NCBI GenBank assembly: GCA_046350615.1
Contig: JAXMAA010000003.1
Location: 9,695-73,694 of the forward strand
Direction: 5' to 3'
DNA: 64,000 bases
Origin: Candidatus Saccharimonadales bacterium
GTDB lineage: Bacteria; Patescibacteriota; Saccharimonadia; Saccharimonadales; UBA7683
Positions 3,241 to 64,000 of this stretch are shown here, piece by piece (the first letter of the stretch is position 1; each line of letters opens with the position of its first letter). The notes beneath the pieces were generated by a model that saw nothing but the letters and a program-made list of their open reading frames with translations, made no database searches and was not told the origin of the DNA. A program made the position numbers and the translations under genes.

Positions 3241-3900
3241 TTACATCACCACTTTTCGTGGCTGTTTTATTTTTGGGGCTTTTTGAATTTTTACCTTAGC
3301 CTTCTTGACTGCAGACTCAATTTTTTTGGCGTCATCTTCTCGGCCAACTTTTCGGTAGGCGCCAGCAACAAGGGAGTATGTTTGCTGATTAGGTTGTAGC
3401 TTGGCGGCGTGTTCTAAGGCCTCTACCATTTTTTTGTCGTTCCCGAGTTTTTCCTGTACCTTTGCGTAGGCGATGTAACGCACAGGTATATCATCTTCTT
3501 CTTCCATGGCGGATTCAAGGGTGTGGGCGGCTTTTTGTAACTCACCGACTTCCATATAGACGAGACCGAGATTGTTGAGTGTTGAAGCGTTAGGCTCAAG
3601 ACTATGTGCTATCTCGAAGCATTCTATGGCATGCTCGAAGCTGCGCTGTTTGGCATAAAGAATACCAAGCCGGTTGTAAGCACCGGCGTTGCGCTCATCA
3701 AAGCGTAAAATGGTTAACAGCGCACGCTCGGCTCGTAGGAATTTGTTTTCCTTCAGTGATTGAAAGGCATCATCCCACAGGCGTTGTAACCGGTCTCCAA
3801 CACGTTTGGTGACAAGCTCTTCGGCCTGCTCCTCTGCGTTGGCAGTTGCATAAATTGTCCACGTGCCAATGGCGAGTACAGCTAATAATGCGTAAATCAT
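3241..3900 (-). CDS. membrane-anchored TPR-repeat protein
   Basis: N-terminal TM (IYALLAVLAIGTWTIY); repeated 34-aa TPR pattern (AGAYNRLGILYAKQRSFEHAIECFEIAHSLEPN, TLNNLGLVYMEVGELQKA). Confidence 0.75.
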   Translation of the reverse strand: MIYALLAVLAIGTWTIYATANAEEQAEELVTKRVGDRLQRLWDDAFQSLKENKFLRAERALLTILRFDERNAGAYNRLGILYAKQRSFEHAIECFEIAHSLEPNASTLNNLGLVYMEVGELQKAAHTLESAMEEEDDIPVRYIAYAKVQEKLGNDKKMVEALEHAAKLQPNQQTYSLVAGAYRKVGREDDAKKIESAVKKAKVKIQKAPKIKQPRKVVM

Positions 3901-3925
3901 TAGTGAGTATTATAGCATTCTTTTG

Positions 3926-4756
3926 TTAGAGGTTTTCAATCAGCTTTGTAAGTTGTATTTTTACACTCGCATTTCGCGCACTGATGTCTTTGGCTACTTC
4001 TTCAATCACTTCTGCTTGTTGCATGAGCTTTTTAAGGCGTGCAGCATTCGTTTTATTTGCTTGCACGAGACTATCTACAATGATAGCGAGCGTATCCAGA
4101 AGATCGATTGCCCAACTTCTTTCAAATTTCGCCATAATGCATGTGAGATGCCGTTGGTAGTTTGGGCCACTATAAAATTGTTTAGCTGTGTTGATTCTTG
4201 CAAGATGTGACTTTTGCAACTCAGAATTTTCTAATAAGCGAAATAGGCGGCCTGGCATCATATCGACGCTGCGCAAGAGCGATTGTATCTCATCAACTGG
4301 AATACTAGAACGTTCTTGCGCAGTGGCAACAATTTGATCTGTGGGTGGTGGGAGTACCTCAATATGCTGTGTGCGGGATTGAATGGTGGCAAGGAGCGAG
4401 TCGCGATGATTTGCTGTAAGGATGAAGTGAGTATGGGCTGGCGGTTCTTCAAGTAGTTTTAAAAATGCGTTTTGTGCCTCGTGGCTCATGGTCTGAGCAT
4501 TTTTAATAATAAGCGTGAGTGGCGACCCGCTCCGTGTGATCTGGTAGAGGTTTCGAACTTGCTCAATTGTAATTGACTGTGTGTCTGGCGCCGCTTCAAT
4601 AATGATTGGCTCACTTTCAAGGCTGGTAGCCAGCCACGTGGCAATAGTGGTTTTGCCTACACCATGTTTACCGCTTAGAATTAGGCCATGCGATGGATTG
4701 GATTGGTGGCGTTCTAGTGCGGCCAGAGTGCGGGAATGTATGATCGGCTGCTTCAT
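3926..4756 (-). CDS. holB: DNA polymerase III delta-prime subunit
   Basis: GLILSGKHGVGKTT Walker A-like motif, NAFLKLLEEPP, SRTQ sensor motif; typical length. Confidence 0.8.
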   Translation of the reverse strand: MKQPIIHSRTLAALERHQSNPSHGLILSGKHGVGKTTIATWLATSLESEPIIIEAAPDTQSITIEQVRNLYQITRSGSPLTLIIKNAQTMSHEAQNAFLKLLEEPPAHTHFILTANHRDSLLATIQSRTQHIEVLPPPTDQIVATAQERSSIPVDEIQSLLRSVDMMPGRLFRLLENSELQKSHLARINTAKQFYSGPNYQRHLTCIMAKFERSWAIDLLDTLAIIVDSLVQANKTNAARLKKLMQQAEVIEEVAKDISARNASVKIQLTKLIENL

Positions 4757-5730
4757 GTTTTGTGATACTCTGTAAATTCTGTGGGTGCCTTAGCATGCCA
4801 TGTTTTTCTGATACCACCGGGGAGTGTTAGTTCTAGTGAGGCTGCATGGAGCATTAGGCGCTGGGCGGTCTCACCATTATAGAATTCATCACCTACAATC
4901 GGGTGCTTAAGGTAAGCGAGATGTACGCGGAGCTGATGGGTGCGTCCGGTGTGGGGTTTGAGTTCTACCAAGGATGTAGTTTGTGGTTGGTGGTCGGTAG
5001 TTTGGAGGACTTTGAATTCGGTTTGGGCGGGTTTGCCGTTGACGCCAGCGCGGAAGGTGGCTGGTTTTTTGGGATTGCGCTCAATTGGTATATCTATCAA
5101 GCCTTCGTTTTCGGGAAGTTCTCCAGATACAACTGCAAGGTACGTCTTTTTTACATTTCTCTGAGCGAATTGTTTTTGCAGATGCTTTTGGGTAGCCGCA
5201 TTCTTAGCCACGATCATTAATCCGCTCGTTGCTCGATCGAGCCGATGCACAATACCTGCTCGATTAGAGCTCCAGAGATCGTCGATTCCGTCATCTCGAG
5301 TGTTAGTCGAAAGATCTGGTGTAGTTTGTATGCCTTCGGCATGACTCTTTTGACTGGATTCCGGATCAAGCCCGGAATGACGCTGAACGTGATTTTTTAG
5401 CCATGTAGCAACCGTGCCCTCCTTGTTAAAAGCACCTTTGGAGTGAGCTAACACACCAACCGGCTTGTTTATAACAACGACATTTTCATCCTCATAGATA
5501 ACTGGTAAATCGATACTATCTGGAGCAAGGTCAAGATCCGTAAAGTCAACCGATATTTGATCCCCAGTCTTTAAGATGTATTTTGATTTCGCCCTTTCTT
5601 GGTTTACTAAAACTTGCCCGCCACCAATCAACTTTTCAATGGCTGAACGTGAATAATCAGGGTAAAGCCGAGCAAGCGTCTTGTCAAGCCGCTCACCAAC
5701 CTCAAATTCCGTCAGAATCTCTTTACTCAC
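4753..5730 (-). CDS. rluD: RluA/RluD-family 23S rRNA pseudouridine synthase with N-terminal S4 domain (GTG start)
   Basis: Catalytic motif GIVHRLDRATSGLMIVAKN; S4-like N-terminus; about 40-aa low-complexity insert before the catalytic Asp. Confidence 0.8.
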   Translation of the reverse strand: MSKEILTEFEVGERLDKTLARLYPDYSRSAIEKLIGGGQVLVNQERAKSKYILKTGDQISVDFTDLDLAPDSIDLPVIYEDENVVVINKPVGVLAHSKGAFNKEGTVATWLKNHVQRHSGLDPESSQKSHAEGIQTTPDLSTNTRDDGIDDLWSSNRAGIVHRLDRATSGLMIVAKNAATQKHLQKQFAQRNVKKTYLAVVSGELPENEGLIDIPIERNPKKPATFRAGVNGKPAQTEFKVLQTTDHQPQTTSLVELKPHTGRTHQLRVHLAYLKHPIVGDEFYNGETAQRLMLHAASLELTLPGGIRKTWHAKAPTEFTEYHKT

Positions 5731-5843
5731 TGGTTTAATTGTACCCTACCCTTTGGTTGGAAAGATAATTCTGCTAATAAATTCGGCTACGCGTCTTAAG
5801 ATTTTGAAGCCAGATTCTTGGCTGATTGGCCGTTTTTCTCCAC

Positions 5844-7448: not shown

Positions 7449-8523
7449 TACTCTTCTCCATTGTAGCAGTCATTACGACGTATTCTTTCAATAATTGATA
7501 AAACTTCTCTATACTTTCGACAGATATCCATTCATTGTCACCATGAGCTCCTCCACCATCCGGCCTAAACATAATCACTGGTATATCGAGGGCTGCGAAG
7601 AAACGCGCGTCGGATGATCCAAAAGCTTTGGTACGTTCTACTGGTTTACCTATATGCTCTTCATAAAGTGTGACGAAGTTTTCTACGTGCTGGTTAGAAA
7701 GATCTAGCTGGTAATTGTCGCCTTCGACAAGTTTTAATATTTCACCGTTATATTTTTTCAACAAAATGTCTAGTTTGTACTTGATTTGCTCTAGGTCGGC
7801 TTTGTCTTTGTAGCGTATATCGAGCGTGGTGTCAGCATGTGCTGGGCCCTGATTTTCGGCACTTCCTGCGTTTAGAGTGGCTATAGTTACGGTTGAATTG
7901 TTAGTGTCGCTTGTATCGAAGATCTTCTCAACTTCAGAGAGGAAATGGATTAACTTTGCGCCAGCACCATCACCCTCCCACGGTCGTGAACCGTGGTGGC
8001 TCTTGCCATGTATACGTATCGTATGTGCGCTGATACCTTTTGCGGCTATACTCAATCCGCCAAAATTATTGCCCGCATCTGGCAGTATGCAGACGTCTGT
8101 AGTGTAACCCTGTTCCAAAAATGGCAATACTCCGTTAAAACCGCCAAGTTCTTCATCTCCGGAGAACATTAATCCGATGTCGTATTTTCTTAGGTTATCG
8201 CCAAGCTGCTCAATAAGCGTAAGGTATGCTGCTGCCGCAAATAACATATCGTATGCACCTCGGCCATAGTATCTTCCGCCCTCACTTCTAAAGGGCCGAT
8301 CTTCTGCTGGTACTACGTCTATGTGCGCTTGTAGTAACAGCTTGCAATGCCTACCTTTTGAGGTGCTGGCATAGAGACTATTGATTCCGTTTTTTTGCAG
8401 TAGTTTCGTCTGCATGCCGTGCAGTTCTAAGCAATTTTTGACATATTGCAAAAGTTGCAGAACATTTTCTTGATTCGAGCTCACAGGGTAAAAATTTACT
8501 AAATTCTTCAGATGTTGTTCCAT
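7441..8523 (-). CDS. M20-family metallopeptidase/deacylase (ArgE/DapE-like)
   Basis: AHIDVVPAE, GRGAYDM, DEELGG metal-binding blocks typical of M20 peptidases. Confidence 0.75.
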   Translation of the reverse strand: MEQHLKNLVNFYPVSSNQENVLQLLQYVKNCLELHGMQTKLLQKNGINSLYASTSKGRHCKLLLQAHIDVVPAEDRPFRSEGGRYYGRGAYDMLFAAAAYLTLIEQLGDNLRKYDIGLMFSGDEELGGFNGVLPFLEQGYTTDVCILPDAGNNFGGLSIAAKGISAHTIRIHGKSHHGSRPWEGDGAGAKLIHFLSEVEKIFDTSDTNNSTVTIATLNAGSAENQGPAHADTTLDIRYKDKADLEQIKYKLDILLKKYNGEILKLVEGDNYQLDLSNQHVENFVTLYEEHIGKPVERTKAFGSSDARFFAALDIPVIMFRPDGGGAHGDNEWISVESIEKFYQLLKEYVVMTATMEKSNE

Positions 8524-8527
8524 GCGT

Positions 8528-9595
8528 CTATTTTACCAGTACGGCCCCAGATATCGCATTAGAGGCTCCGTGAACGATGAGTTCTGGCCGAGCAACATAT
8601 GCACCGCCAATTGCGGTTGCACCTCTGACTGAAGTGCTACCACTGGCTTGCATAAGTACGAATATTCGGAGAATCGCATTATTCCTACCTTCAACATTAT
8701 CTATCTGTATCGGCGGCTCAAACGTTTGTACGAGTGCCCCGCTACCAAGTTCGTGGTACTTTCGTAGGTCTCGTATCAACCTCCCCGATTTAACCGTCCC
8801 GTGTTTACCAAATATTTTCACGTCTTCAGGCCTAAGGTAGACCGTAACCCCCATCGCCATTGAGCCGAGACGAGCTTTAACAACTTGAGATTCTAATTCA
8901 CCATCAGTTTGTAATAAATCGTCGATGCCTTCGGCTACTGAAACGATGCCGAGGCGCTCAAGGTACGATTTATTACCCTCAGTCACGAGGGGTGCTAAGC
9001 ATCTCTTTTGCAGAGTAAGGTATGGCTGGTGCGAATCCTGGTTACCAGGTATTGCCTTAATAATTACACCGCCACTCTCGCCTATGTCTGGAATGCGAAA
9101 GTCACCGGGTGTGTAGTGGTATCTGTCTCGCCCAACTACAATTTCATCATCGGTTCCATGTCTACGTGCCCCAGATATAATCACGTGCGGGACATCACCT
9201 GTGACTTGATCATAGTGGCTTAATACCCTTTCTTTTAAGCCTGAGCCAGTAGCTGCATGCATGAATCGATCAGTCACGCCGATCCCAGAAGGGCTATCTT
9301 CAAGTTCGTATGGTACGATGCGGTCGTCTACGATTGTGCAGTCAACGCGAACAACCAGGGAGTTTACACCATATGTGCGTTCGGCCAATGTTTGTTCTTT
9401 CAAGCCGTCTTGATCGCCATATGCGTCAACTGCAGCAAGCGCAAAGCTCTCTACTTCTTGTCTATGTTTATCTGTAAGCAGGACTGCATCTTCAGAAAAA
9501 GGTGTCTTGAGGCCACTGTATAGGTCAAGCATTGCCGTCTCTGCACCAAGCGCCACCTTGTTCGCACCCAGTTCTCCACTGCTAGTAACTTTCAT
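8528..9595 (-). CDS. hypothetical protein, possible ATP-grasp-type ligase fold
   Basis: Start moved to ATG 9595 (GGAGA 7 nt upstream); VRVDCTIVDDRIVPYELEDSPSG resembles an ATP-grasp Mg-binding strand; otherwise unrecognised. Confidence 0.55.
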   Translation of the reverse strand: MKVTSSGELGANKVALGAETAMLDLYSGLKTPFSEDAVLLTDKHRQEVESFALAAVDAYGDQDGLKEQTLAERTYGVNSLVVRVDCTIVDDRIVPYELEDSPSGIGVTDRFMHAATGSGLKERVLSHYDQVTGDVPHVIISGARRHGTDDEIVVGRDRYHYTPGDFRIPDIGESGGVIIKAIPGNQDSHQPYLTLQKRCLAPLVTEGNKSYLERLGIVSVAEGIDDLLQTDGELESQVVKARLGSMAMGVTVYLRPEDVKIFGKHGTVKSGRLIRDLRKYHELGSGALVQTFEPPIQIDNVEGRNNAILRIFVLMQASGSTSVRGATAIGGAYVARPELIVHGASNAISGAVLVK

Positions 9596-14706: not shown

Positions 14707-14961
14707 CTATATATGGATAGCGCTCAGATCTACTTTGGCATTCTTAGCCAGTACCTCAATGTATTTCTCCAAACGATCAATTTTATGCTGCATTGCTGCC
14801 ATCTCCACAGCATATGTGTCGATTTTAGCAGCGTAACCATCGATTACGCTTACTAGTCTTTCAATATCTTTTTTATCAGCCTTTTCGTCAAGTTTCTGTT
14901 CGATGATATCAAAGCGATCTTCTATATAGCTGAACAATTTTGTAAACTGATCGTCATCCAT
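14707..14961 (-). CDS. small coiled-coil protein, family member A
   Basis: 84 aa; MDDDQFTKLFSYIED... and KIDRLEKYIEVL; paralog of 45403-45645; TGaTATAAT 7 nt upstream of ATG. Confidence 0.7.
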   Translation of the reverse strand: MDDDQFTKLFSYIEDRFDIIEQKLDEKADKKDIERLVSVIDGYAAKIDTYAVEMAAMQHKIDRLEKYIEVLAKNAKVDLSAIHI

Positions 14962-15014
14962 GCGTTTGATTATATCATTAGACTTTAGTCTCTGCGACTC
15001 TTACATTACAAAAT

Positions 15015-15464: not shown

Positions 15465-16862
15465 TTAGTAATCTTGGTCGTAGGTGACCATGAGGGCGCG
15501 AGATTCTAGCTGGCGGAGGGTTTCTAGGGCTACGGAGACGACGATGAGGAGTCCGGTGCCGCCAATTGTGAGTTGTGTTGTTCCAAGAATGCGTTCAACA
15601 AATAATGGGAGCAATGCTAGTAAGCCAAGGCTAAGTGCGCCGAATAAATTGAGGCGGCTGACGATCTTTTTTAAATATGTTTCAGTTTGTTCGCCAGGGC
15701 GAATCTTATCTATAAAACCGCCTTGCTTCTGGAGGTTTTCGGCAATTTCTTTTGCATTAAATACCACACTTGTATAGAAGTAAGTGAAAGCAAATATAAG
15801 CAGAAAATAAATAGCTGGATACGCATAAGTATTGATCGGATTATTGCTTAACTGCTGTTGTTGGCCCGGTTGCGCAAACCACACAGTAAGATTGGTTCCA
15901 AGTTCGGCTACCCACGGTTTACTGTTGCTCTTAATTAACTCTCCTACAAATTGAGGCACACTTAAAAAGGCAACTGCAAAGATAATGGGGATGACACCTG
16001 CGGTAATGAGCTTTACGGGTAAGATCGTCCCCACCCCTCCATAGGCTCTGTTGCCTTGCACCCTCTTGGCATAACTCACTTTTATAACTCGCTGAGCCTC
16101 ATTAAGCTTCACTACAAGATATGTAACGATTGCTGTTGCCACAAGAATGGCGGTGGTTATGGCCAAGCCTTTACCACTAATTGGCAACGTAAACCAATTG
16201 AAGACGTTCAGTTTCTGCTGTTCTCCAGTGACGGTTTGCACCAAGGTTGCACCGGTTTTAGGCAATCTTGAAACAATTCCCGCAAAAATAAGCAGGCTAA
16301 TACCATTGCCTATTCCTTGCTCAGTTATAAGCTCTCCGACCCACATAAGGAGCATTGAGCCACCTGTGAGTGTGGCAACCATGAGCACCCACTGGAATAG
16401 TGAGGTATTGCCCGTAATATCAATTCCAAGCGTACCTGCAGCCTGCTGACGAATTAAAAGTATGAGGCCAAAAGATTGCACAATGGCCAACGGTAACGTG
16501 ATAATACGAGTCCATTGGTTGATCTTACGTCTACCAACTTCGCCATCTTGTTGCAACTCCTCAAGCTTTGGGAACGCCTTGGTGAGCAGCTGCATAATGA
16601 TCGAGGCATTAATGTATGGGCCCAAACCCATGAGCATAATTGAGAGGCTTGAAAGGGCGCCACCTGAGAGGAGATCGAAAAATCCAAGTAATTGTTGTGA
16701 GCTAAACAGGTTGTTAATAAGCTGGCGTAACTGAGTTGGTTCTGCAAGCGGAATTGGAATATGTGAAAGCATGCGGTAGGCTACTATTAACAGCACAACT
16801 ATGAGGAGTCGTTTTTGCATATCTCTGCTTTTCAGCGATTGTCGGATTGTCTTCCAGCTCAC
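15465..16862 (-). CDS. secY: preprotein translocase subunit SecY
   Basis: 465 aa, about 10 TM; GLGPYINASIIMQLL and GGTGLLIVVSVALET motifs; follows rplO. Confidence 0.95.
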   Translation of the reverse strand: MSWKTIRQSLKSRDMQKRLLIVVLLIVAYRMLSHIPIPLAEPTQLRQLINNLFSSQQLLGFFDLLSGGALSSLSIMLMGLGPYINASIIMQLLTKAFPKLEELQQDGEVGRRKINQWTRIITLPLAIVQSFGLILLIRQQAAGTLGIDITGNTSLFQWVLMVATLTGGSMLLMWVGELITEQGIGNGISLLIFAGIVSRLPKTGATLVQTVTGEQQKLNVFNWFTLPISGKGLAITTAILVATAIVTYLVVKLNEAQRVIKVSYAKRVQGNRAYGGVGTILPVKLITAGVIPIIFAVAFLSVPQFVGELIKSNSKPWVAELGTNLTVWFAQPGQQQQLSNNPINTYAYPAIYFLLIFAFTYFYTSVVFNAKEIAENLQKQGGFIDKIRPGEQTETYLKKIVSRLNLFGALSLGLLALLPLFVERILGTTQLTIGGTGLLIVVSVALETLRQLESRALMVTYDQDY

Positions 16863-16985
16863 GTTTGTTTCCTTCTCTTGTAATCGTATTACAGTATAAC
16901 AGTAACGATGCTAATCGTCATTACCACTGGCTTGTCGAAAGATCTAATACTGTGATGCTTCGACTGCACGCAGGGCGACGGTTGA

Positions 16986-45359: not shown

Positions 45360-45402
45360 AAGATGCCATTATGCCATAACAGATTACAAATTACCACTCC
45401 TG

Positions 45403-45645: not shown

Positions 45646-45649
45646 GGTC

Positions 45650-46942
45650 TTATTGTAACATCTTCACAATCTCATCAGTGTCCAACACGTCCTCTTTTTG
45701 GGTTTCGACATTCCGTAGGATGTACTTTTTGTTTTGGAGTTCGTCCTCACCAATAAACAGCAAGTATGATACGCCGAGTTTGAGAGCGGCTTTTATTTGC
45801 TTATCGGGTTTTCTGTCTGTGAGATCAACTGCCACGTTCACGCCGTTTTCTCGAAGTTCTCGCACGACCGCTTGGGCCTCCTTTAGCACATCGCCTATGG
45901 TCACTACATATAGCTGCGTGGAAGATTGTAGTTTTGGCAGTAGATTATGACTTTCTAAAAAGTTCTCAATAGGCGCATCACCCATGCCAAAGCCCACAGT
46001 AGCAATTGGCTCCACACCAAATGCCCCGACCAAGCCATCGTAACGACCGCCACCAAACATCGAACGGTTGTTTTCAGGGTCAAGATCTACCACCTCAAAT
46101 ACAATATCAGTGTAATAATCGAAACCGCGCATTAAGGTAATGTCGAAAGTAACTGAGGTAATTTGATGCTCAGCCATGAGTGTGAACAATAATTGAACCT
46201 CCTTCACGGCATTTGTCTCACGTACGCTCTCTGGTAAATCTGCCAAAGTTTTAGCTTTAATTAACGTATACAGCCGCTGTAAGCCCACCTCTGCCTGATC
46301 TGGTTTAAATATGGCGCGTGCCTTTTCAACAAAAGCATCAGCTGGCATCTTGTCTTTTCTATCAAAGAGCTGTACCATCTGCTTGGCCTGCGTGGCGTCA
46401 AGCTCTAGGTACTGGTTCATAATCAGATTAATAAGCTTGCGGCTATTGATTTTAATCTGATACATCGTTTCGTCAGCACCAAATTCCTTCATAATAGCGT
46501 CAACTACCGAGATAATCTCCAAATCTGCGTCAATTGTTGCCACGCCGAACAGATCAACATTCAACTGCCAGAATTGTCTGTTACGCCCCCTCTGCGGGCG
46601 TTCGTAGCGCCAGCAATCAGGAATAGAAAACCACCTAAGCGGATAGGCCAGTTCTTGCCGCCGAGCTGCCACCATTCGCGAGACACTCGGCGTCATCTCT
46701 GGTCGCATCACTACCGTTCGACCGCCGCGGTCAGTAAAGCTATAGGTCTGTTCATTCACAATTTCATCACTGGTTTTGCTGGTGTAGAGCTCAATCGGCT
46801 CCAAAACCGGCGCAGTGTACTCTTCGTAGCCGTATCGCTGGCAGACCCGCCGCCAGACATTAAAAATGTATTCCTGCAAGCGTTTATCCTCAGGATAAAA
46901 ATCCCGCGCCCCTTTGTAACTTTGTGTACTTAATTTTGCCAT
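45650..46942 (-). CDS. hisS: histidine--tRNA ligase (start at ATG 46942)
   Basis: KGARDFYPED, RYERPQRGRNRQFWQ (motif 2), GGGRYDGL (motif 3). Confidence 0.93.
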   Translation of the reverse strand: MAKLSTQSYKGARDFYPEDKRLQEYIFNVWRRVCQRYGYEEYTAPVLEPIELYTSKTSDEIVNEQTYSFTDRGGRTVVMRPEMTPSVSRMVAARRQELAYPLRWFSIPDCWRYERPQRGRNRQFWQLNVDLFGVATIDADLEIISVVDAIMKEFGADETMYQIKINSRKLINLIMNQYLELDATQAKQMVQLFDRKDKMPADAFVEKARAIFKPDQAEVGLQRLYTLIKAKTLADLPESVRETNAVKEVQLLFTLMAEHQITSVTFDITLMRGFDYYTDIVFEVVDLDPENNRSMFGGGRYDGLVGAFGVEPIATVGFGMGDAPIENFLESHNLLPKLQSSTQLYVVTIGDVLKEAQAVVRELRENGVNVAVDLTDRKPDKQIKAALKLGVSYLLFIGEDELQNKKYILRNVETQKEDVLDTDEIVKMLQ

Positions 46943-48531: not shown

Positions 48532-48777
48532 TCAAGCAGCTTGTGTTTCTGGGTGTTGAGTGCGTATTCCATGGTCGGCAACTTTGTTCACTGTAGCGTC
48601 AAGTTTATTTTCAATACGCACACTCGACACCTTAAGTTCGCTGAAATCACTTTTAATTTCTTGGATTTCTGGCGAGAGTGCGTTAAGAATTTTTTGCATG
48701 AATCCTTCCATCGCAGCATTCATGCGCTGCTCTAATTCTTGTAGATCTTGTTTTGTTGTCCCTTGAGTATTATTCAT
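48532..48777 (-). CDS. small coiled-coil protein, family member C (divergent)
   Basis: 81 aa, heptad-rich; TGaTAAACT 6 nt upstream of ATG. Confidence 0.55.
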   Translation of the reverse strand: MNNTQGTTKQDLQELEQRMNAAMEGFMQKILNALSPEIQEIKSDFSELKVSSVRIENKLDATVNKVADHGIRTQHPETQAA

Positions 48778-48815
48778 ACGCTTAGTTTATCACTTATTTT
48801 TGTTATACTAGAAGC

Positions 48816-49103
48816 ATGTTGAACCAAGATGATCTGAAAAACTTAACCGGTTGGCTCCAAGCAATTTTTAAAGAAGTGCAAGAATCTAAAGGCATTTCAA
48901 ACGAACTGCGCGATAAACTCAATATGCTTCCGGAAATCCGTGATTTTGTTTCACGAGAGCGTGGCGGCAATAGCGAGATTGATCGACGAATTGAAGACAC
49001 CAAAAACCACCTTGAAGGCAAAATCGATCGGCTTGAACAGCAAATCCACGACCTCCGCAATATCTTAAACGATATCAAAAACAAAGTTGACCGCTTGAAT
49101 TAG
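48816..49103 (+). CDS. small coiled-coil protein, family member D
   Basis: 95 aa; EGKIDRLEQQIHDL matches the KIDRL block of members A and B; TGtTATACT 6 nt upstream of ATG. Confidence 0.6.
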   Translation: MLNQDDLKNLTGWLQAIFKEVQESKGISNELRDKLNMLPEIRDFVSRERGGNSEIDRRIEDTKNHLEGKIDRLEQQIHDLRNILNDIKNKVDRLN

Positions 49104-51139: not shown

Positions 51140-51718
51140 TCACTTCCTTGCCACGTTTGGAACTACGCCATATTTGTTTTTCGATGGCTCACTTCGAAGC
51201 AAAAAGAAAATTAACAATATAAGGACTCCGAGGTAAGGTATGAAGCCCAGTAATACGTACCAGGCCGAGTAGCCTGAGTCATGCAATCTCCTAGTCATCA
51301 ATGCCAGTGTCGGAAGAGCTACACCAATACAAAAGATGATTAATAAGAGGCTACCGAAACCTGCAAATATTTCGTATTGCTGCAAAGAGTAACTACTTGC
51401 AGAATACATAGATGCAAGGACAATAAAATATAAACCAAAAACCGCACAAACAATTATCTGGAATAATATAAAAAACCAGAACTCCGACCTTGAAGATCTC
51501 GTTTGAAAATTCACATAATTACGGAAGCCAAGCACTACTGATTTGTTTAATCCAACAACTTTTTGAGCTCCATTTGCTGAATAATGTTCGGCATCTTTTT
51601 GTATTTGACTTTCGCTTTGATGATCGTTGTGAGAATGATTTAAGCTGTTGCCACATTCAGGGCAATATGAGTCTGTCGGTAGCACAGCGTGACCACATTC
51701 GTTACAAAATTTTGCCAT
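51140..51718 (-). CDS. zinc-ribbon plus DUF805-like membrane protein
   Basis: N-terminal CNEC...CPEC; RSSRSEFWFFILF...RRLHDSGYSAWYVLL pattern of the DUF805/YhaH family. Confidence 0.65.
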   Translation of the reverse strand: MAKFCNECGHAVLPTDSYCPECGNSLNHSHNDHQSESQIQKDAEHYSANGAQKVVGLNKSVVLGFRNYVNFQTRSSRSEFWFFILFQIIVCAVFGLYFIVLASMYSASSYSLQQYEIFAGFGSLLLIIFCIGVALPTLALMTRRLHDSGYSAWYVLLGFIPYLGVLILLIFFLLRSEPSKNKYGVVPNVARK

Positions 51719-51771
51719 AAGCTGAGTATACTATAATTAAAAATACTTCGTGGTTGCAAGGTGCTCATGCT

Positions 51772-53380: not shown

Positions 53381-53848
53381 CTAACGCTCAGCCAAATCTT
53401 CATTTGTAAAGTACTGTACGCCTAGTTCTAATCGTTTACCGGATTTTAACGCTATAACATAGTTTGCCACGCAGCCAAAAAGAGGGCTTGGCAGATTGTC
53501 GAGATCGTACCACCCCCATGAAGTCAACTTATCTGGCTCCATAACCACCGGTTCGCCATCTACATATTCGGCCACCATGCCTACATCGAGATAGTGCTTA
53601 GGCATATAACGTGTTAGGTTTGTTATGCACAAAAGCCCCAGATCCTTCACTCTTAAGTCTGGCCCGGCCTCTTCTTTTAATTCTCGTAAGATACTTGATT
53701 CAAGAGATTCGCCATGTTCAAAATGTCCACCTGGACCGCCAAACTCTCCAGCACCATGCGATCCTTTACGCTGGCCAAGTAATATAGTATTGCCTCTTTG
53801 TACAATAAGACCTATGCCAATTTTTGGTATTTGCTCTACCATAGACAT
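53381..53848 (-). CDS. NUDIX hydrolase
   Basis: Nudix box GGPGGHFEHGESLESSILRELKEEAG. Confidence 0.85.
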   Translation of the reverse strand: MSMVEQIPKIGIGLIVQRGNTILLGQRKGSHGAGEFGGPGGHFEHGESLESSILRELKEEAGPDLRVKDLGLLCITNLTRYMPKHYLDVGMVAEYVDGEPVVMEPDKLTSWGWYDLDNLPSPLFGCVANYVIALKSGKRLELGVQYFTNEDLAER

Positions 53849-53884
53849 AGCATACCATCTTTAGGAGCTGCCAGGATAGGCTAG

Positions 53885-55912
53885 TCAGTTAAGATAGGTT
53901 AAGCTGAGAGATTTTTGCACTCTTGCGCGGAGCTCGGGATAATGCTCGATCTGCTCTTTTTTGATGAAGGTTTCGGCAGCACTTTTTGCTTGTTTAATTA
54001 AACTCAGGTCGGTGATGTTGGCGATTTTAAGGTCTAGCGCACCGTGCTGCTTGCTGCCATAAATTGCGCCGGGACCGCGAAGCTCCAGATCCATTTCTGC
54101 CAGCTTGAAGCCGTCATTTGTCTGTTCCATCGCCCGAAGACGTTTTGAGGGTTTCTGGCTCGTGCTCGGAATAAGGTAGCAGTAACCCTGATGTTCGCCA
54201 CGACCCACTCGGCCCCTCAGTTGGTGCAGCTGAGCCAGGCCAAACTGATCTGCTCCTTCAATCAGCATGACCGCAGCATTCGGGATATCTATGCCAACCT
54301 CAATAACGGTTGTGCTCACTAGAATATCCAGTTCCCCCTGAGCAAACGCTTGCATCACTTGTGCCTTTTCTTCATCCTTCATCTTGCCGTGAAGCGTAGC
54401 TATTCTCCGATGCTTAAACACACCCGTCTTCAATCGTTTTACTTCCTCGTTCACACTTTTAGCCTCAGAGTTTTCAGAATCGTCAATCAACGGACAAACC
54501 ACAAATACCTGGCGACCGGCTTTAATTTCATCATCGATAATTTGGTAGAGTTGCGGCCGCGAATTGGGCGGCCAAAGGTGAGTTTCAATCGGCAAGCGGT
54601 TTTTCGGCTTGGCTCCGATAATTGAAATATCAAGCTCACCGTACACTGTTAATGCTAGTGAACGCGGAATTGGCGTGGCTGTCATGCTCAGAATATGCGG
54701 AATCTTTTCGCCTTTATCCACCAGTTTTTGCCGCTGTTTAACGCCAAACCGATGCTGTTCGTCAACAATAATAAAACCGAGGCGCTTAAATTGAACCGAC
54801 TCTTGAAGCAAGGCGTGTGTACCAACAATAATATCAATTTCGCCACCCGCCAGCTGCTGCTTTAAGACAGTTTTTTGCTTGCCCTTCACGGCTGAGGTAA
54901 GAAGCGCGATGTTGATGCTGAGCGGTTCCAGCAAATCTGCGAGTGTTGCCGCATGTTGCCGAGCTAGCAGCTCAGTTGGAGCCATAAAGGCACTTTGAAT
55001 ACCTTGACGAGCCGCCATAAAAGCCGCCATCGCCGCTACAACCGTTTTACCAGCTCCGACGTCGCCCTCAAGGAGCCTGTTCATAGGAGTTTCTTTGTCG
55101 ATATCCTGCAAGATCTCCCAGGCGGCCTTCTTTTGCTGGGCAGTTAACTCAAACGGCAACGCTCCGATGTATTTTTTGGCAAAGGTTTGATCAAACTCGA
55201 TCTGCAAAGCAATTTCGGCCTCTACCTGCTTTTTATTGAGCTGTCCCGCCAGCACATACGCAAAAACCTCTTCAAAGCCAATTCGATCTTTCGCCTCGGC
55301 TAGTTTTGTTTGGTTCTCTGGCCAGTGCAGCTGATACGCTGCCTCTGCGTAGCTCATGAAGTCACGCTGCTTCACCAACCATTCTGGCAATGTTTCTGGA
55401 AGCTCTTGAAACATACTTGTAACTTCAGTGAGCGCTCTTCTGATTTCCCGAGAATCCAGGCCTTTTGTTTGCGGATAGATCGGCACAATTCGCGCTGTGT
55501 TAGCAGTAAACTCCTTGGCTTCCTCAACTGATGGATTTTGCAGTACATAGCGATTGAAGCTGAAATCGTAGAGGCCTGAGAAATAGTACTCGTGATGGGG
55601 CTTAAAATACTTCTCTCGATAAGGCTGGTTAAACCAAACCACTCTTATGGCCGAGCTTGTATCACGAATGACCGCTTCCGTAATATGCATACCACGGCGC
55701 ACGCGCTTTGTTTTGATTGATTCAATGCTCGCCTTTACGGTTACTGCACCAGGCTGAATGTCGGCAATCGGCAAAACCTCGGAGTAGTCGTCGTAACGGC
55801 GCGGCCAAAAGGTAAGCAAGTCAGAAATCGTCTCAATACCAAGCTTCAACAGCTTTTTAGCAGTTTCCGGCCCCACCCCTTTAATTTTTTGTACTGAGGA
55901 CTGTAAATTCAT
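53885..55912 (-). CDS. recG: ATP-dependent DNA helicase RecG (start probably ATG 55912)
   Basis: LPFELTAQQ, GDVGAGKT, DEQHRFG, wedge domain N-terminus. Confidence 0.92.
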   Translation of the reverse strand: MNLQSSVQKIKGVGPETAKKLLKLGIETISDLLTFWPRRYDDYSEVLPIADIQPGAVTVKASIESIKTKRVRRGMHITEAVIRDTSSAIRVVWFNQPYREKYFKPHHEYYFSGLYDFSFNRYVLQNPSVEEAKEFTANTARIVPIYPQTKGLDSREIRRALTEVTSMFQELPETLPEWLVKQRDFMSYAEAAYQLHWPENQTKLAEAKDRIGFEEVFAYVLAGQLNKKQVEAEIALQIEFDQTFAKKYIGALPFELTAQQKKAAWEILQDIDKETPMNRLLEGDVGAGKTVVAAMAAFMAARQGIQSAFMAPTELLARQHAATLADLLEPLSINIALLTSAVKGKQKTVLKQQLAGGEIDIIVGTHALLQESVQFKRLGFIIVDEQHRFGVKQRQKLVDKGEKIPHILSMTATPIPRSLALTVYGELDISIIGAKPKNRLPIETHLWPPNSRPQLYQIIDDEIKAGRQVFVVCPLIDDSENSEAKSVNEEVKRLKTGVFKHRRIATLHGKMKDEEKAQVMQAFAQGELDILVSTTVIEVGIDIPNAAVMLIEGADQFGLAQLHQLRGRVGRGEHQGYCYLIPSTSQKPSKRLRAMEQTNDGFKLAEMDLELRGPGAIYGSKQHGALDLKIANITDLSLIKQAKSAAETFIKKEQIEHYPELRARVQKSLSLTYLN

Positions 55913-55932
55913 CACCAACAGATTATAGATCA

Positions 55933-58509: not shown

Positions 58510-58563
58510 GAATATTACGCTTGAAAAAACTTGTTGTCAACATGTTTTGTTATACTCTTTATT

Positions 58564-58863
58564 ATGAGGACACCAAAAGGATGGAGCGAAAAAGATGGGG
58601 CGTTAATTTTTGCAGTAAAATGCAAGGATTTTACTCATGCACTCGCATTATTAAACTCAGTTGGTGATATTGCTGAACAGCTGAAGCACCACCCGGATCT
58701 TGGTATTCGAAACTACAATGAAGTTTTTGTCACGACCAAAACTCATGAAACCAACTCAATAACCAGCAAAGATTACGAACTCGCAAACAGAGTTAACAAC
58801 CTGCTTGACTATCATGAAAACAAGAAGAATACTGAAAAGTACGATACCGATTTGAGTGACTAG
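58564..58863 (+). CDS. pterin-4-alpha-carbinolamine dehydratase (PCD/DCoH) family (start at ATG 58564)
   Basis: DFTHALALLNSVGDIAEQLKHHPDLGIRNYNEVFVTTKTHE. Confidence 0.7.
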   Translation: MRTPKGWSEKDGALIFAVKCKDFTHALALLNSVGDIAEQLKHHPDLGIRNYNEVFVTTKTHETNSITSKDYELANRVNNLLDYHENKKNTEKYDTDLSD

Positions 58864-60173
58864 CGTCTGTAGCCTTGTTTATCCAGATCACGTTCGGGAC
58901 GGGTGAGATACTCGAGCACGTTATCTTGCACGTTACCATTATGAACAATCTTTCTTGCACCAAGTGCGCGAGCAATAAACTTTGTTTTATTGAATACCTC
59001 GCGCCAACCGACTGTTCTAGCACCTGCTCTAAATCCTTTTTCAGCTCGAAACACATACACTGCATTCCCGCTCACCGGGTTCTCCGCAACTACATGCTCA
59101 ATAACACCGTGATCTGTATCTTCGGGTAAAATAGCTGCTACATAATCGTGTTCGCCGGAGGTGTCAAGATCAGCGACAGCCAAGTATGCTCTTTGTGGAT
59201 CCCATTGTAGCGCTATTGAAGCGAGCCACTTCAATCTTCCAAGATCAATAAAGCGTCTATCACCATCTTCTGAACCGTAGCTTCCATCTGAGATCTTCTC
59301 CAGGACCTCTGGAGGTAGAATTTCCCACTCGGTCTCCACGACAGGCAAGCTACTGCTATCGGTATTCTGTTTGCGCTGTTGTTCAAACAAAAGAAGGTTG
59401 CCGATTTCCTCATGGAACTGAGTGGAGCTGAATTCACCTGAAAGAATGTAGTCTCTAAGGTCCAGGGCAGCATTAGATACGCCAGTCAATATCCGGCCTT
59501 CGCGAAGAACTTCATTTCCAGGCATAGCCATCATTTTGTCGAATCTTTCATCGAGATTTTCTGAACTCTGTGCTGCGAGTGCATCATATGCCTCGTGCAG
59601 TAACCGCACTTCTCGTCTTCTGCCCAGCTGCACGAAGTAACTAAGATCACTTATCGCCGTCCGAAATACAATGTCTTCATCGGTTTCATTCTTATGCTTT
59701 TTCGGTACTTGTCCGTCTGCCCAGTGCCCTGGCTTTGCGACGCCGGCTATAAACGCAGCGTTGCAAACAGCCCGAAGTTTATCGACTGGATCATTGCTTT
59801 TTATCAGTTCTCTCCGACCATACTTAAGTGCCGTGTAACTAATATCAACAGTTTCTACTTCAGGACGCTTCACACCGTTTTTATCAAATATTTGCTCACC
59901 CCACTTAGATAGCCCCGCATTGTTCGCCACTTTTTGCCGAATAAGCTGCGCAAATTCGGCTCGATCCACGATACTCGCGTTCCACAAGCTAGGCATCACT
60001 TCGCCCTCACTATAAATGGGCATATTCAAGCAACCTACCTGCATCAAATCAAGCAACGCCGATGGTGGCACATCTGGCTCAAGTTCTCGCTCATCATTTG
60101 TAAGTTCAAGAATAAGCTGGTCTAAGCCAGTGGCAAAACTTTGCAACAGCTCGTCGCGAGTAGATATTTCCAT
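58860..60173 (-). CDS. hypothetical 437-aa protein
   Basis: Long intact ORF; TATAAT 7 nt upstream of ATG; no motif recognised. Confidence 0.6.
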   Translation of the reverse strand: MEISTRDELLQSFATGLDQLILELTNDERELEPDVPPSALLDLMQVGCLNMPIYSEGEVMPSLWNASIVDRAEFAQLIRQKVANNAGLSKWGEQIFDKNGVKRPEVETVDISYTALKYGRRELIKSNDPVDKLRAVCNAAFIAGVAKPGHWADGQVPKKHKNETDEDIVFRTAISDLSYFVQLGRRREVRLLHEAYDALAAQSSENLDERFDKMMAMPGNEVLREGRILTGVSNAALDLRDYILSGEFSSTQFHEEIGNLLLFEQQRKQNTDSSSLPVVETEWEILPPEVLEKISDGSYGSEDGDRRFIDLGRLKWLASIALQWDPQRAYLAVADLDTSGEHDYVAAILPEDTDHGVIEHVVAENPVSGNAVYVFRAEKGFRAGARTVGWREVFNKTKFIARALGARKIVHNGNVQDNVLEYLTRPERDLDKQGYRR

Positions 60174-60243
60174 ATTAATTATTATACATCAATATAATCA
60201 CTTAGTCAAGCAGGGTCATCCGAATCTAAGTGCCTCGGATCTG

Positions 60244-61458: not shown

Positions 61459-61637
61459 AATTTCCTCTATACATTTAGGTGGTTTAATGATTCTAAAGTT
61501 TAAAAAATTGTGCCCTACAGGGCATATGTTGGATAGCAATAGTTTCTGAGCTGTTTCATCAAAGTCTAGTATACCATCTGTATTTCACTCGCTAAAGTGC
61601 TATACTTTATACCATAAGCATGAGGTACAATTAAGGT

Positions 61638-64000
61638 ATGAAGAAAAACGACAAGAAAGCCGCAGCTGGCTCGATCCGTAAACCATCACACCGAAAGGGT
61701 GCGCACTCGGTCTATAGTAATCTCGCTACGAAAAAACGTGTAAAAGCTGATGCTAAATCACGTAAGAAGGCAGAATTCTTAGCCACCCTACCCAAATCCC
61801 GATTAAAGCGTGCTACCTACCGGTTACATCCAAAACGATTCTTTAAGTACTGGTTCTCTAAGCAGGGTGCAATTATGGCACTGAAGCTGACTGGCCTTGG
61901 GTTGGCCGCAGGGATTATCTTAATCTTAGCTGTCTTTGCTATCTTCCGGAAAGATCTTGCCATTGGTCCGGATGAACTTACTAAGCGTGTCCAGAGTCGC
62001 ACCACCAAATTTTATGATCGTACAGGTCAGGTATTGCTGTATGAGCTCTACAAGGATCAGCAACTCACTTTTGTGAAACCCGATCAGATTAATAACAACA
62101 TGAAGTGGGCCACAGTGGCGATTGAAGATAAGGACTTTTACAAGCACGGCGGTTTTGATATTCGCGGCATTATCCGTTCTGTATGGGTAAATGTAAGTGG
62201 CACCGGAAGGCAGGGCGCTTCTACTATTACACAACAGCTTGCTCGTAACGTTATTCTGGAAGATAACACCCGCTCCGGACTGGCTGGTTATACACGAAAA
62301 TTGAAAGAAATCATTCTTTCGATCGAGCTTGAGCGCACCTATTCAAAAGATGAGATCCTCAATTTCTATCTAAACTCAATCGGCTATGGTGGTACCGCAT
62401 ACGGCGTTGAATCTGCTGCGCAACGCTACTTTGGTACATCGGCAAAAAACCTCAGTATTGAGCAAGCAGCATACATTGCAGCAATACCACAATATCCGAG
62501 CTTATACGATAGAAACAGCCCAAATTTTGATCCTGAAGCCACACTGGCACGACAGCGTACCGTAATTGATTACATGCGCGATCAAGGATACATAAAAAGT
62601 GATCAAGCAAAGGCAGCAAAACAAACAGATATTCTGGCGAGTATTAAGCCACTCTCAAGCGAGCCAACTGCAAAAATAGCGCCTCACTTTATTGATGAGC
62701 TCGTTAAGCAACTCGAAGGAAAGTATGGTGCCGATAATGTGCGAAAAGGTGGTTGGCGCGTTACCACCACACTTGATTGGGATATGCAGCAAATCGCCGA
62801 ACAATCAGTTGCCAATAATATGAATGCCGTTGAAAGACAACATGGTGATAATGCTGCGCTCGTGGCAGTAGATGTGCCTACCAACCAAGTTCTTACATTA
62901 GTTGGTAGTCGTGATTACAAGTACCCGGGTTTTGGCTCATATAACGCTGCAACAGCAAACCTTCAGCCAGGTTCAAGCCTTAAGCCTATTGTTTATAGCA
63001 AGCTCTTTGAAGGCAATCAATATGGGCCGGGCAGTACGCTGGCAGACGATAAGAAGTGTTGGGGGGGCTGGTGTCCTAATAACTTTGATAAAGGTTTTCG
63101 TGGCAGTATATCTATCCGTCAGGCGTTGGCTGAATCAAGAAATATTCCTGCCATTAAGGCCGCAGAAGCCTCCGGTATGGCATCGGTAGTCGATCTTGCT
63201 AAAAACATGGGCGAAACTGACATCGGCTGCGGAGAGAGCTGTGATTCGCTTGGCCTTGCAATTGGTAGTGGTACCGTGCGTCTTGACGAACACACTGCTG
63301 CCTATGCAACGCTCGCACGCGGTGGCGTCTCGAAGCCAGAAACGTACGTTCTGAAGATTGAGAAATCGAATGGAGAGATTGTGCAAGAATGGAAAGACAC
63401 ACCCGGCACGAAAACTATGGGTGAAAAAGGTGAAGAAATTTCATACCTTGTAAGCGACATCCTAGCAGACGACAAAGCCCGCCGAGTGACCTTTGGTAAT
63501 CCTGTCGGTTTTAATCCAAAAGGTGTGAAAGCTGCCGTTAAAACAGGCACTACCGATAATTCTAAAGATGGCTGGATGATGGGTTACTCGCCCAAGCTAG
63601 CTGTTGGTATTTGGGTTGGTCGCTCAGATGGAACGGTTATGAATAGCACCACTCACCTTCAGACAGGGCCGATGTTTGGTGATTTTATGGCACGTGCACA
63701 TGCCGAGGTCATGACCAAACCACAATATGGGTATAAGGCTAACGAGTGGTTCACAAAGCCAGCTGGGATTCAGACTCTAAAAGTTTCCGGTCGCTCAGAC
63801 ATATTCCAATCATGGTATAAGAAACCCCGCGAAACCAATAAAGACTTTGTCATGGATAAGGTCTCACGCAAACTCGCAACCGATTGTACTCCTCCGGCAG
63901 CACGAGAGACTATTCAGGTGATGGCTTCTGTTGATCCTGTTACTAACCAAGAAACCACCGGTACTCCGCCAGAAGGCTGGGACATTAAGAATAGCGATGA
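61638..64000 (+). CDS. class A penicillin-binding protein (GT51 transglycosylase + transpeptidase), 3' end beyond window
   Basis: Not in ORF track (no stop in window). Hand translation: EDKDFYKHGG, GASTITQQL, then SSLK (SxxK), SRN (SxN), KTGT. Confidence 0.88.
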   Translation, partial: MKKNDKKAAAGSIRKPSHRKGAHSVYSNLATKKRVKADAKSRKKAEFLATLPKSRLKRATYRLHPKRFFKYWFSKQGAIMALKLTGLGLAAGIILILAVFAIFRKDLAIGPDELTKRVQSRTTKFYDRTGQVLLYELYKDQQLTFVKPDQINNNMKWATVAIEDKDFYKHGGFDIRGIIRSVWVNVSGTGRQGASTITQQLARNVILEDNTRSGLAGYTRKLKEIILSIELERTYSKDEILNFYLNSIGYGGTAYGVESAAQRYFGTSAKNLSIEQAAYIAAIPQYPSLYDRNSPNFDPEATLARQRTVIDYMRDQGYIKSDQAKAAKQTDILASIKPLSSEPTAKIAPHFIDELVKQLEGKYGADNVRKGGWRVTTTLDWDMQQIAEQSVANNMNAVERQHGDNAALVAVDVPTNQVLTLVGSRDYKYPGFGSYNAATANLQPGSSLKPIVYSKLFEGNQYGPGSTLADDKKCWGGWCPNNFDKGFRGSISIRQALAESRNIPAIKAAEASGMASVVDLAKNMGETDIGCGESCDSLGLAIGSGTVRLDEHTAAYATLARGGVSKPETYVLKIEKSNGEIVQEWKDTPGTKTMGEKGEEISYLVSDILADDKARRVTFGNPVGFNPKGVKAAVKTGTTDNSKDGWMMGYSPKLAVGIWVGRSDGTVMNSTTHLQTGPMFGDFMARAHAEVMTKPQYGYKANEWFTKPAGIQTLKVSGRSDIFQSWYKKPRETNKDFVMDKVSRKLATDCTPPAARETIQVMASVDPVTNQETTGTPPEGWDIKNSD

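Follow-up and report, generated by a model that had tools for sequence, protein, structure and literature searches.

In a stretch of DNA where a -10-like hexamer stands time and again a few nucleotides before a start codon, where does transcription begin, and are the messenger RNAs made there leaderless? The question is raised by 64 kb (about 46% GC) of the genome of a Candidatus Saccharimonadales bacterium (contig JAXMAA010000003.1); this whole stretch, which we call the window, contains rpoBC, the str, S10, spc and alpha ribosomal clusters, tig, clpP and three tRNAs. An earlier note on this DNA had listed 13 genes with a box of this kind 6-8 nt before the start codon and had read them as the heads of leaderless transcription units. 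The leaderless reading is supported at the level of the sequence, where every prediction that can be tested was borne out: we consider it very probable that the boxes are sigma-70/sigma-A promoters placed in such a way that the first transcribed base would be the A of the start codon or a base 1-3 nt from it. The position of the motif, its composition, its conservation, its exclusivity with respect to Shine-Dalgarno (SD) sequences and the agreement of the start codons with protein families and public annotation are matters of direct observation.

We define a site as a -10 hexamer, preceded or not by a TGn extension and followed by a spacer of 6-8 nt and then by ATG or GTG, and we re-read all the sites from the letters of the window. 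The 13 hexamers listed previously are all exact, with the TGn where it had been claimed, the spacer of 6-8 nt and the start codon. The extension, said to be frequent, is present at nine of the 13 sites, to be compared with a TG frequency of 0.069 (p=2e-8). The list stands as far as it goes, and three sites of the same type had been overlooked (starts at 8523, 1937 and 53842).

Could such a pattern arise by chance? We took the starts of the 82 window genes blindly, as the longest open reading frame (ORF) or the first ATG, we accepted as a box any TATAAT with at most one mismatch, and we shuffled the 50 nt upstream gene by gene, 2000 times. A box is found at 6-8 nt from 11-12 of the 82 blind starts, against 2.6±1.6 in the shuffled sequences (maximum 9), and the counts at the other 3-nt offsets lie between 0 and 7. 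When the motif is taken as the anchor, 14 TGn-extended -10 boxes have a same-strand start within the next 0-60 nt, and in 9 of them the distance is 6-8 nt (p=3e-9); the identical scan of the syntenic 50-kb region of E. coli gives 1 where the window gives 14. In 1.29 Mb from 80 Saccharibacteria species, the boxes preceding ATGs at the 5' ends of ORFs number 105, 104 and 117 at 6, 7 and 8 nt, over a background of about 30. A check on TANNNT enrichment, of the kind which had been asked for, gave a divided answer. A loose count of TANNNT-N(d)-ATG across all ATGs has no visible peak, because internal ATGs and the looseness of the motif swamp it; the peak at 6-8 nt appeared once the scan was limited to ATGs near the 5' ends of ORFs and to at most one mismatch. 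We concluded that the 6-8 nt pattern is not due to chance.

These counts already bear on a first alternative, according to which the starts are mis-assigned, or the boxes are fortuitous matches in AT-rich intergenic DNA, while the real starts lie downstream behind ordinary leaders. The choice of start codons leaves little freedom, since in 11 of the 13 cases the ORF offers no start codon earlier than the one listed, and the ATG of the penicillin-binding protein (PBP) gene directly follows an in-frame stop. The two exceptions, clpP and the gene of pterin-4a-carbinolamine dehydratase (PCD), have ORFs which reach upstream of the chosen ATG, and this speaks for the alternative, as does the fact that the starts of the extra candidates 1937 and 53842 were picked with the motif as a guide; the NCBI starts agree with both. 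Against it stand, beside the blind counts and the E. coli control, the protein alignments. Positions 1-144 of Trigger_N align with residues 1-145 of the tig product, and the Pfam alignments begin at residue 4 for the zinc ribbon, at residue 12 for ClpP and at residue 13 for RluD. Two paralogous small coiled-coil proteins, A and B (ccA and ccB; their relatives C and D are ccC and ccD), both begin with MxDxQFTKLF, counted from residue 1. In the stretch of about 45 codons that follows the listed starts, no in-frame start is preceded by an SD, save for two marginal SD-like matches: GTG 45588 in ccB, with GAGG 14 nt before, and ATG 48699 in ccC, with AGGA 3 nt before. Starting ccB at GTG 45588 would delete the N-terminus which it shares with ccA.

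The public annotation and the orthologs point the same way. We compared the NCBI products MFO0971484-MFO0971560 (locus tags U0520_) of this metagenome-assembled genome: they are identical from end to end at 11 of the 12 testable genes of the list, including the shorter forms of clpP and PCD and the GTG of rluD, the product of ccA not being on public record. They also match the extra candidates 1937, 8523 and 53842, and the same arrangement recurs in the orthologs of about 80 species. Taken together, mis-assignment or chance is hardly credible as an explanation. In L001 (CAZXUE010000001.1), the locus of the closest relative, the public calls probably contain errors of start: tig is called as 404 aa from Met25, so that 24 conserved N-terminal residues of Trigger_N are missing, and recG as 684 aa instead of the 675 found here. 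Both would come from gene finders having no leaderless model.

If the boxes mark leaderless units, they should part company with SD sequences, and this is what one sees. The claim that no SD lies between the box and the start is confirmed: 15 of the 16 leaderless-type sites of the window have no SD, and the sole GAGG lies upstream of the hexamer. With curated starts, the 82 window genes divide into 16 of the leaderless type, 51 of the SD type and 15 with neither signal. Among pooled genes (n=897), a box at 6-9 nt coincides with an SD in 3, stands alone in 248 and is replaced by an SD in 296, while 350 have neither (Fisher p=2e-48), the last figure being explained by the crude gene calls in the related loci (960 genes, many of them with wrong starts). 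Operon-internal genes have an SD peak at 6-9 nt; rpoC is preceded by AGGAGG and tuf by AGGAG, and the SDs ascribed previously to rpoB, rpsL, tuf, tyrS (60244-61458) and the genes at 9595 and 9974 are all there. It was right to speak of two initiation modes in one genome, box and SD being nearly exclusive of each other and the SD occupying its 6-9 nt position in internal genes. The usage of start codons in the window does not differ significantly between the modes (15 ATG and 1 GTG for the leaderless type, 47 ATG and 4 GTG for the SD type). According to a manual tally made from gene geometry, the window has about 33 unit heads, of which about 13 are of the leaderless type and 3 are near misses (9-10 nt), whereas about 14 have a leader and an SD; close behind a same-strand gene there are three further leaderless-type sites. 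The leaderless type amounts to about 16 of the 82 window genes, or roughly 40-50% of the heads of transcription units.

A box situated where a ribosome-binding site is expected could also be read as a signal for translation. In this second alternative, the boxes would be AU-rich, non-SD translation signals within 5' untranslated regions (UTRs), not promoters, like the Bacteroidota motif of GeneMarkS-2 group B. The motif is indeed A/T-rich and lies at the position of a ribosome-binding site, and CPR (candidate phyla radiation) ribosomes are peculiar, having a short bS1 and lacking some proteins (PMC9297842). The distribution of the motif fits poorly with this idea. It is absent from operon-internal genes, which carry AGGAGG instead, whereas group B motifs precede all genes (PMC6028130), and the same TGnTATAAT boxes are found 26-30 nt upstream of genes led by an SD. 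The genes with starts at 27533, 16862 (secY) and 30775 have a box of the TGnTATAAT type 24-30 nt upstream, followed by an SD. The gene of the Transgly_assoc small protein (27531..27568, minus strand) has TGaTATAAT with the hexamer at 27560-27565, 26 nt before GTG 27533, and a perfect AGGAGG in its leader; secY (16860..16901, minus strand) has TGtTATACT with the hexamer at 16893-16898, 30 nt before GTG 16862, and AAGGA in its leader.

The anatomy of the boxes bears on the same question. We aligned 79 non-redundant sites on the hexamer and considered only the columns not used for selection. On the 5' side of the hexamer, T is found in 70% of sites at -5, a purine (R) in 71% at -4, T in 73% at -3 and G in 70% at -2, which spells TRTGn. 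TRTGn is the consensus of the extended -10 element of Gram-positive bacteria, also known as the '-16 region'. In the profile of the 79 sites, the T, the A and the final T of the hexamer are near-invariant. The -35 signal is weak and yet positional: T, T and G reach 59%, 48% and 39% at -23 to -21 from the hexamer, that is, at a spacing of 17 bp, and the mean of the best -35 match is 3.18 for spacings of 16-18 bp, where control spacings give 2.29 and 2.52. Such a profile is one of recognition by sigma, and not of AU-richness in general. Moreover, a pyrimidine immediately precedes the ATG at 81% of the sites, against 59% for SD genes (p=8e-4), with enrichment at all three spacers (25/29, 18/24 and 21/26). 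This fits the preference of initiation for a pyrimidine at -1 and a purine at +1, the A of the ATG being +1.

Two divergent pairs offer an argument of space. Between the ATGs of ccC and ccD there are 38 bp, and between clpP and the gene at 43455 there are 85 bp, which contain two back-to-back extended -10 boxes as well as a 27-bp CIRCE element; intergenic regions of 38 and 85 bp leave no room for leaders. In the 38-bp pair, promoters further upstream would have no space outside the neighbouring gene. The translation-signal alternative is therefore very improbable, and the prediction that the boxes are extended -10 promoters of the housekeeping sigma-70/sigma-A type is well supported by the sequence. 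The CIRCE is a perfect operator, TTAGCACTC-N9-GAGTGCTAA, at 43387..43413, where 0 are expected by chance; it lies between the back-to-back promoters and, instead of occupying a 5' UTR, covers the -35/spacer predicted for the clpP promoter. In 32 of 80 Saccharibacteria loci a single perfect copy is found at the same place upstream of clpP (including L001, L011 and L017-L035). Given this operator in the window and in those loci, clpP appears to be regulated by HrcA in this lineage.

Is the mode of initiation a property of the gene, kept by its orthologs? We mapped orthologs with a start rule blind to the motif and counted boxes at 5-9 nt. The box is present in 78 of 79 tig genes (no SD), in 55 of 70 clpP genes (7 SD), in 52 of 70 hisS genes (8 SD), in 14 of 16 recG genes (no SD) and in 18 of 25 members of the 53363 family (1 SD). 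Conversely, rpoC has the box in 0 of 38 (38 SD), rpoB in 1 of 23 (17 SD) and rpsL in 1 of 11 (9 SD). The box of tig lies at 7-9 nt in the 78 species which keep it, that of recG at 6-9 nt in its 14 and that of clpP mostly at 6-7 nt. When all the called genes are clustered, the families are bimodal, about 10 being mostly of the leaderless type and about 15 mostly or entirely of the SD type. A natural swap is seen in clpP: seven species have the -10 further away, about 13-26 nt upstream (six of them at about 20-25 nt), and those species only have GGAG, GAGG or GGAGG before the ATG. Between close relatives, as also between clpP orthologs, TGnTAnnnT and the ATG are retained while the inner positions of the hexamer and the spacer sequence drift, which is the footprint expected of a -10 element. 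These comparisons of sequences indicate that, throughout the class Saccharimonadia, each gene family keeps its own mode, leaderless or SD.

The exact point where transcription starts, and the way in which the messenger is translated, we infer from these data. The holoenzyme of RNA polymerase with the housekeeping sigma would recognise the extended -10 TRTGnTAnnnT, with little help from a weak -35 (TTG at 17 bp), and would initiate 7-9 nt past the hexamer at a pyrimidine(-1)/purine(+1) step coinciding with the A of the ATG. The resulting mRNA would have neither 5' UTR nor SD, and the ribosome with its initiator tRNA would bind the 5'-terminal AUG directly, by analogy with the leaderless mRNAs of Actinobacteria, Deinococcus and E. 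coli lambda cI. Operon-internal genes, and heads with a promoter placed at a distance of about 24 nt or more, use a canonical AGGAGG-type SD at 6-9 nt.

A third alternative keeps the promoters and shifts the start: most transcripts would begin 1-4 nt upstream of the ATG, with very short leaders, still without an SD and probably handled like leaderless mRNAs. It would account for the spacers of 8 nt (tig in 68 species, the TPR gene) and of 9-11 nt (recG, hisS and a purF-like gene), with which the ATG comes to lie near the upper limit of the distance usual between -10 and start, and for the purine found at the seventh position of some spacers; a variable distance is also reported for N. lyticus (PMC12641261). 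Nevertheless, 29 of the 79 non-redundant sites have the canonical spacer of 6 nt, with the A exactly at the seventh position, and for each of the three spacers there is an excess of sites with a pyrimidine at -1 and A at +1. For these reasons we consider a general start upstream of the ATG unlikely.

Several facts do weigh against the leaderless reading. Some of them concern the spacers. The box of tig lies at 8 nt in most species and those of recG, hisS and the purF-like gene at 9-11 nt, and spacers of 8-11 nt may give leaders of 1-4 nt instead of strictly leaderless mRNAs; in N. lyticus, 188 starts inferred from RNA-seq coverage are at variable distances from the -10 (PMC12641261). Others concern the sites themselves. 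One of them has a GTG (rluD) and one hexamer has 2 mismatches (TAAACT, ccC). The statement that the 13 genes all begin transcription units holds for six unambiguous heads, which belong to divergent pairs, and less well for the other seven, which follow a same-strand gene or tRNA by 4-113 nt; the status of these seven as heads rests on the promoter itself, and read-through transcripts, in which the seven regions are internal sequence, probably exist as well. Finally there are matters of sampling and control. A generic scan for the -35/-10 consensus (42-62 kb) is not enriched over shuffled sequences, with 34 found and 30.8 expected; a promoter-like match tells nothing by itself, and the signal resides in the position relative to starts. 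All the related loci come from the surroundings of tig, so that about 40 gene families are resampled and the sample is not genome-wide. The agreement with NCBI starts is only partly independent, since the NCBI gene finder can itself model such promoters.

We now give the sites one by one, beginning with those on the minus strand. The gene of a TPR protein (3241-3900; Pfam TPR; same start as NCBI MFO0971486.1) has its site at 3898..3917, with TGcTATAAT (hexamer 3909-3914) 8 nt before ATG 3900. The gene of an RluD/RluA-family pseudouridine synthase (4753-5730; S4 domain from residue 13; same start as MFO0971488.1) has TACAAT at 5738-5743, 7 nt before GTG 5730 (site 5728..5743). For ccA (14707-14961; N-terminus MDDDQFTKLF), the site at 14959..14977 consists of TGaTATAAT (hexamer 14969-14974) and a 7-nt spacer before ATG 14961. 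In clpP (42785-43369; Pfam CLP_protease; same start as NCBI MFO0971539.1), TGcTATAAT (hexamer 43376-43381) stands 6 nt before ATG 43369 (site 43367..43384). The trigger factor gene tig (44073-45359; Trigger_N) has TGgCATAAT (hexamer 45368-45373) and 8 nt before ATG 45359 (site 45357..45376), and upstream of it ccB (45403-45645; same start at NCBI) has TGtTACAAT, the hexamer (45652-45657) lying within the 3' end of hisS, 6 nt before ATG 45645 (site 45643..45660). The weakest site, with its 2 mismatches, is that of ccC (48532-48777): TGaTAAACT (hexamer 48784-48789), 6 nt before ATG 48777 (site 48775..48792), an arrangement kept in L001 as TGaTAAACT-6-ATG. A Zn-ribbon/DUF805 protein gene (51140-51718; zinc ribbon from residue 4; same start at NCBI) has TATACT at 51725-51730 and 6 nt before ATG 51718 (site 51716..51730). 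For a hypothetical 437-aa protein gene (58860-60173; same start at NCBI), the site at 60171..60209 reads TTGACT, 17 bp, TATAAT (60181-60186), with 11 of 12 consensus matches, then 7 nt and ATG 60173.

On the plus strand, the gene of a hypothetical 131-aa protein (43455-43850; same start at NCBI) has TGaTATAAT (hexamer 43443-43448) 6 nt before ATG 43455 (site 43440..43457), and the box is conserved in L001 (7 nt) and L002 (6 nt). For ccD (48816-49103), TGtTATACT (hexamer 48804-48809) is 6 nt from ATG 48816 (site 48801..48818), the counterpart in L001 being TGcTATACT-6-ATG. The PCD gene (58564-58863; Pfam Pterin_4a; annotated at NCBI as the 99-aa form and not as the longer TTG ORF) has TGtTATACT (hexamer 58551-58556) and 7 nt before ATG 58564 (site 58548..58566). 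The gene of the class A PBP (Pfam Transgly and Transpeptidase), which runs from 61638 past the end of the window, has TACAAT at 61626-61631 and 6 nt before ATG 61638 (site 61626..61640), with a second TGcTATACT 31 nt upstream.

Among the three sites added here, the M20 peptidase gene (7441-8523, minus strand; same start at NCBI) has TGgTAAAAT, whose hexamer (8530-8535) lies within the end of the upstream gene, 6 nt before ATG 8523 (site 8521..8538). A hypothetical 377-aa protein gene on the plus strand, annotated independently by NCBI with the same product, has TATAAT at 1924-1929 and 7 nt before ATG 1937 (site 1924..1939). The candidate of the NUDIX protein gene (53381-53842, minus strand) is weak: TGgTATGCT (hexamer 53849-53854), 6 nt before ATG 53842 (site 53840..53857), NCBI annotating the same 153-aa product. 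As for recG (53885-55912, minus strand), its description as a near miss was accurate: TATAAT at 55922-55927 is 9 nt from ATG 55912 (55910..55927), and a start at GTG 55915 would give 6 nt.

The four small coiled-coil proteins (80-95 aa) are paralogs, B, C and D being 31%, 12% and 28% identical to A. They belong to no Pfam family and have few orthologs even among close relatives; their genes are dispersed in the window, one of them within the ribosomal spc/alpha cluster, and all four have a leaderless-type promoter.

Other arrangements of boxes and SDs can be noticed in the window. On the minus strand, TA(T/C)AAT is followed immediately by GGAG before a trpS-like gene (7448, 11 nt to the ATG), infA (14644, 15 nt) and hisS (46942, 10 nt). 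These may be dual-mode starts, where GGAG would be an SD on read-through transcripts and an untranscribed discriminator if the adjacent -10 fires. The small genes 42778 and 44066 (minus strand), directly downstream of clpP and tig with a gap of 6 nt each, have AAGTAGG in place of a canonical SD, which may be a variant ribosome-binding site or reflect translational coupling. A promoter with 12 of 12 consensus matches (TTGACA, 18 bp, TGcTATAAT) at 48506-48535 (minus strand), within the 3' end of ccC, precedes by about 179 nt the SD-led ATG 48326 of a hypothetical gene, whose NCBI product is shorter (155 aa). The leader of this gene (48327-48499) contains a GC-rich hairpin at 48360-48384 with no Rfam match and may be a cis-regulatory leader of an unknown kind. 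A second 12/12 promoter, also with TG, lies at 55933-55961 (plus strand), divergent from recG, and leads to an SD-preceded 101-aa ORF (56026-56331, plus strand) overlapping a 176-aa ORF (55930-56460, minus strand); neither has a Pfam match.

A hairpin followed by a T-run (atcgccacaacaggcgattttttaa) lies at 9596-9640 (minus strand), directly upstream of the SD of the 9595 gene, and another at 61511-61524 (minus strand), in the 179-nt leader region of tyrS. Both look like attenuators or terminators, and no T-box or other Rfam family was detected there. At the gathering threshold, Rfam finds in the window the 3 tRNAs only, and permissive scans of three long leaders, those of tyrS (61430-61660), of the gene at 48326 (48300-48540) and of the gene at 9595 (9570-9990), yielded matches at chance level only, among which no T-box or riboswitch could be named. 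The S10 operon is split between rpsJ (27645-27968) and rplC (25184-25801) by an insert of about 1.8 kb (25802-27644), which contains an IS200-like transposase (26349-26786), two small ORFs of unknown kind and the gene of the Transgly_assoc small membrane protein (27276-27533), which has a leadered promoter to itself. At 21-647 there is a fragment of a DDE transposase.

We come to the lineage of the window. The gene of uS5 adjoins that of uL15, with no uL30 gene in between, and this absence is a hallmark of the CPR (PMC9297842). The tig protein has relatives solely in Saccharibacteria (TM7, Patescibacteria/CPR), its identity being 84% with L001 and ranging from 43% to 76% in 79 other species; its best 120 homologues are all at least 61% identical, the few named ones being Saccharibacteria, Saccharimonadales or, probably wrongly, Nomurabacteria. 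Three loci (L003, L005 and L041), whose contigs bear the labels 'Candidatus Nomurabacteria' (with tig at 70% and 63% identity to that of the window) and 'Dongiaceae bacterium', have tig-clpP regions of the Saccharibacteria type, and their contigs are probably misclassified or mis-binned.

How does this system compare with known ones? Genomes of GeneMarkS-2 group C, the bacterial leaderless group, have their Pribnow box at 6-8 nt from the start, a distance published as the mark of leaderless transcription in bacteria, and leaderless operons make up 25-50% of the total, or about 60% in the case of D. deserti (PMC6028130). The window resembles this group (Mycobacterium tuberculosis, Corynebacterium, Streptomyces, Deinococcus deserti) in the box 6-8 nt before first genes having no SD, in the use of SDs by internal and leadered genes and in a similar share of leaderless heads, roughly 40-50%. 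It differs from the group C examples in its lineage, Saccharibacteria (Patescibacteria/CPR), with about 46% GC and a reduced ribosome, and in that its promoters lean heavily on TRTGn and its transcription starts are predicted from sequence. The extended -10 promoters of Gram-positives and E. coli likewise have TRTG and one free base before the hexamer, with a weak TTG -35 at 17 bp; in model organisms they are usually followed by a leader of 20-50 nt, whereas here +1 would coincide with the start codon. In archaea the TATA box of a promoter stands about 26 nt upstream (PMC6028130). The archaeal leaderless mRNAs of group D begin at the start codon, as is predicted here, and internal genes use an SD, as they do here; the difference lies in the bacterial -10 box at 6-8 nt.

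In E. coli, the models for leaderless mRNAs are lambda cI transcribed from PRM and tetR of Tn1721, which are translated via the 5'-terminal AUG without SD pairing, and by analogy translation in the window is predicted to depend on the 5'-terminal AUG in the same manner. In E. coli such mRNAs are rare exceptions, unlike the conserved mode seen here, which serves the housekeeping genes tig, clpP, hisS and recG. In kind, this is the established bacterial leaderless pattern, and Saccharibacteria would be a new lineage for it. In the literature searched, no paper connects leaderless mRNAs with Saccharibacteria, Patescibacteria or the CPR, and the supplementary tables of GeneMarkS-2 may already list a TM7 genome as group C. 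The study of CPR ribosomes discusses the loss of the anti-SD for some Parcubacteria only (PMC9297842), the 2025 promoter survey with the 188 N. lyticus starts makes no comment on leaders (PMC12641261), and the bioRxiv version of PMID 35975994 has no content on transcription starts or promoters. In Saccharibacteria genetics, the published cassettes borrow the leadered promoters of tuf and rpsJ (PMC10633639).

The pattern is present in the Nanosynbacter loci L043 and L080 and is thus directly testable in cultivated strains. For annotation, the finding means that gene finders without a leaderless model will mis-call such starts; for genetic tools, leaderless promoters of about 40 bp would be very compact native expression signals in organisms which became tractable only recently. 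In about half of the units, the absence of a 5' UTR would make riboswitches, attenuators and UTR operators impossible, and control would have to act on the promoter itself, as with the CIRCE at clpP. We would give even chances to a broader picture, in which leaderless initiation is old, gene-specific and selectively maintained across Saccharimonadia, possibly across the wider Patescibacteria/CPR; it would serve about half of the units, including tig, clpP, hisS and recG, lineages would toggle between leaderless and SD-leadered forms (clpP), and regulators would be forced onto the -35/spacer (CIRCE). If this is true, these ultrasmall episymbionts share a leaderless-rich style of translation with the Actinobacteria, which are their hosts, and with other Terrabacteria. 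A conserved leaderless share like that of Actinobacteria and Deinococcus would then be a character bearing on the relationships between the CPR and Terrabacteria, hence on the place of the CPR in the bacterial tree, and it would also bear on how reduced ribosomes initiate translation.

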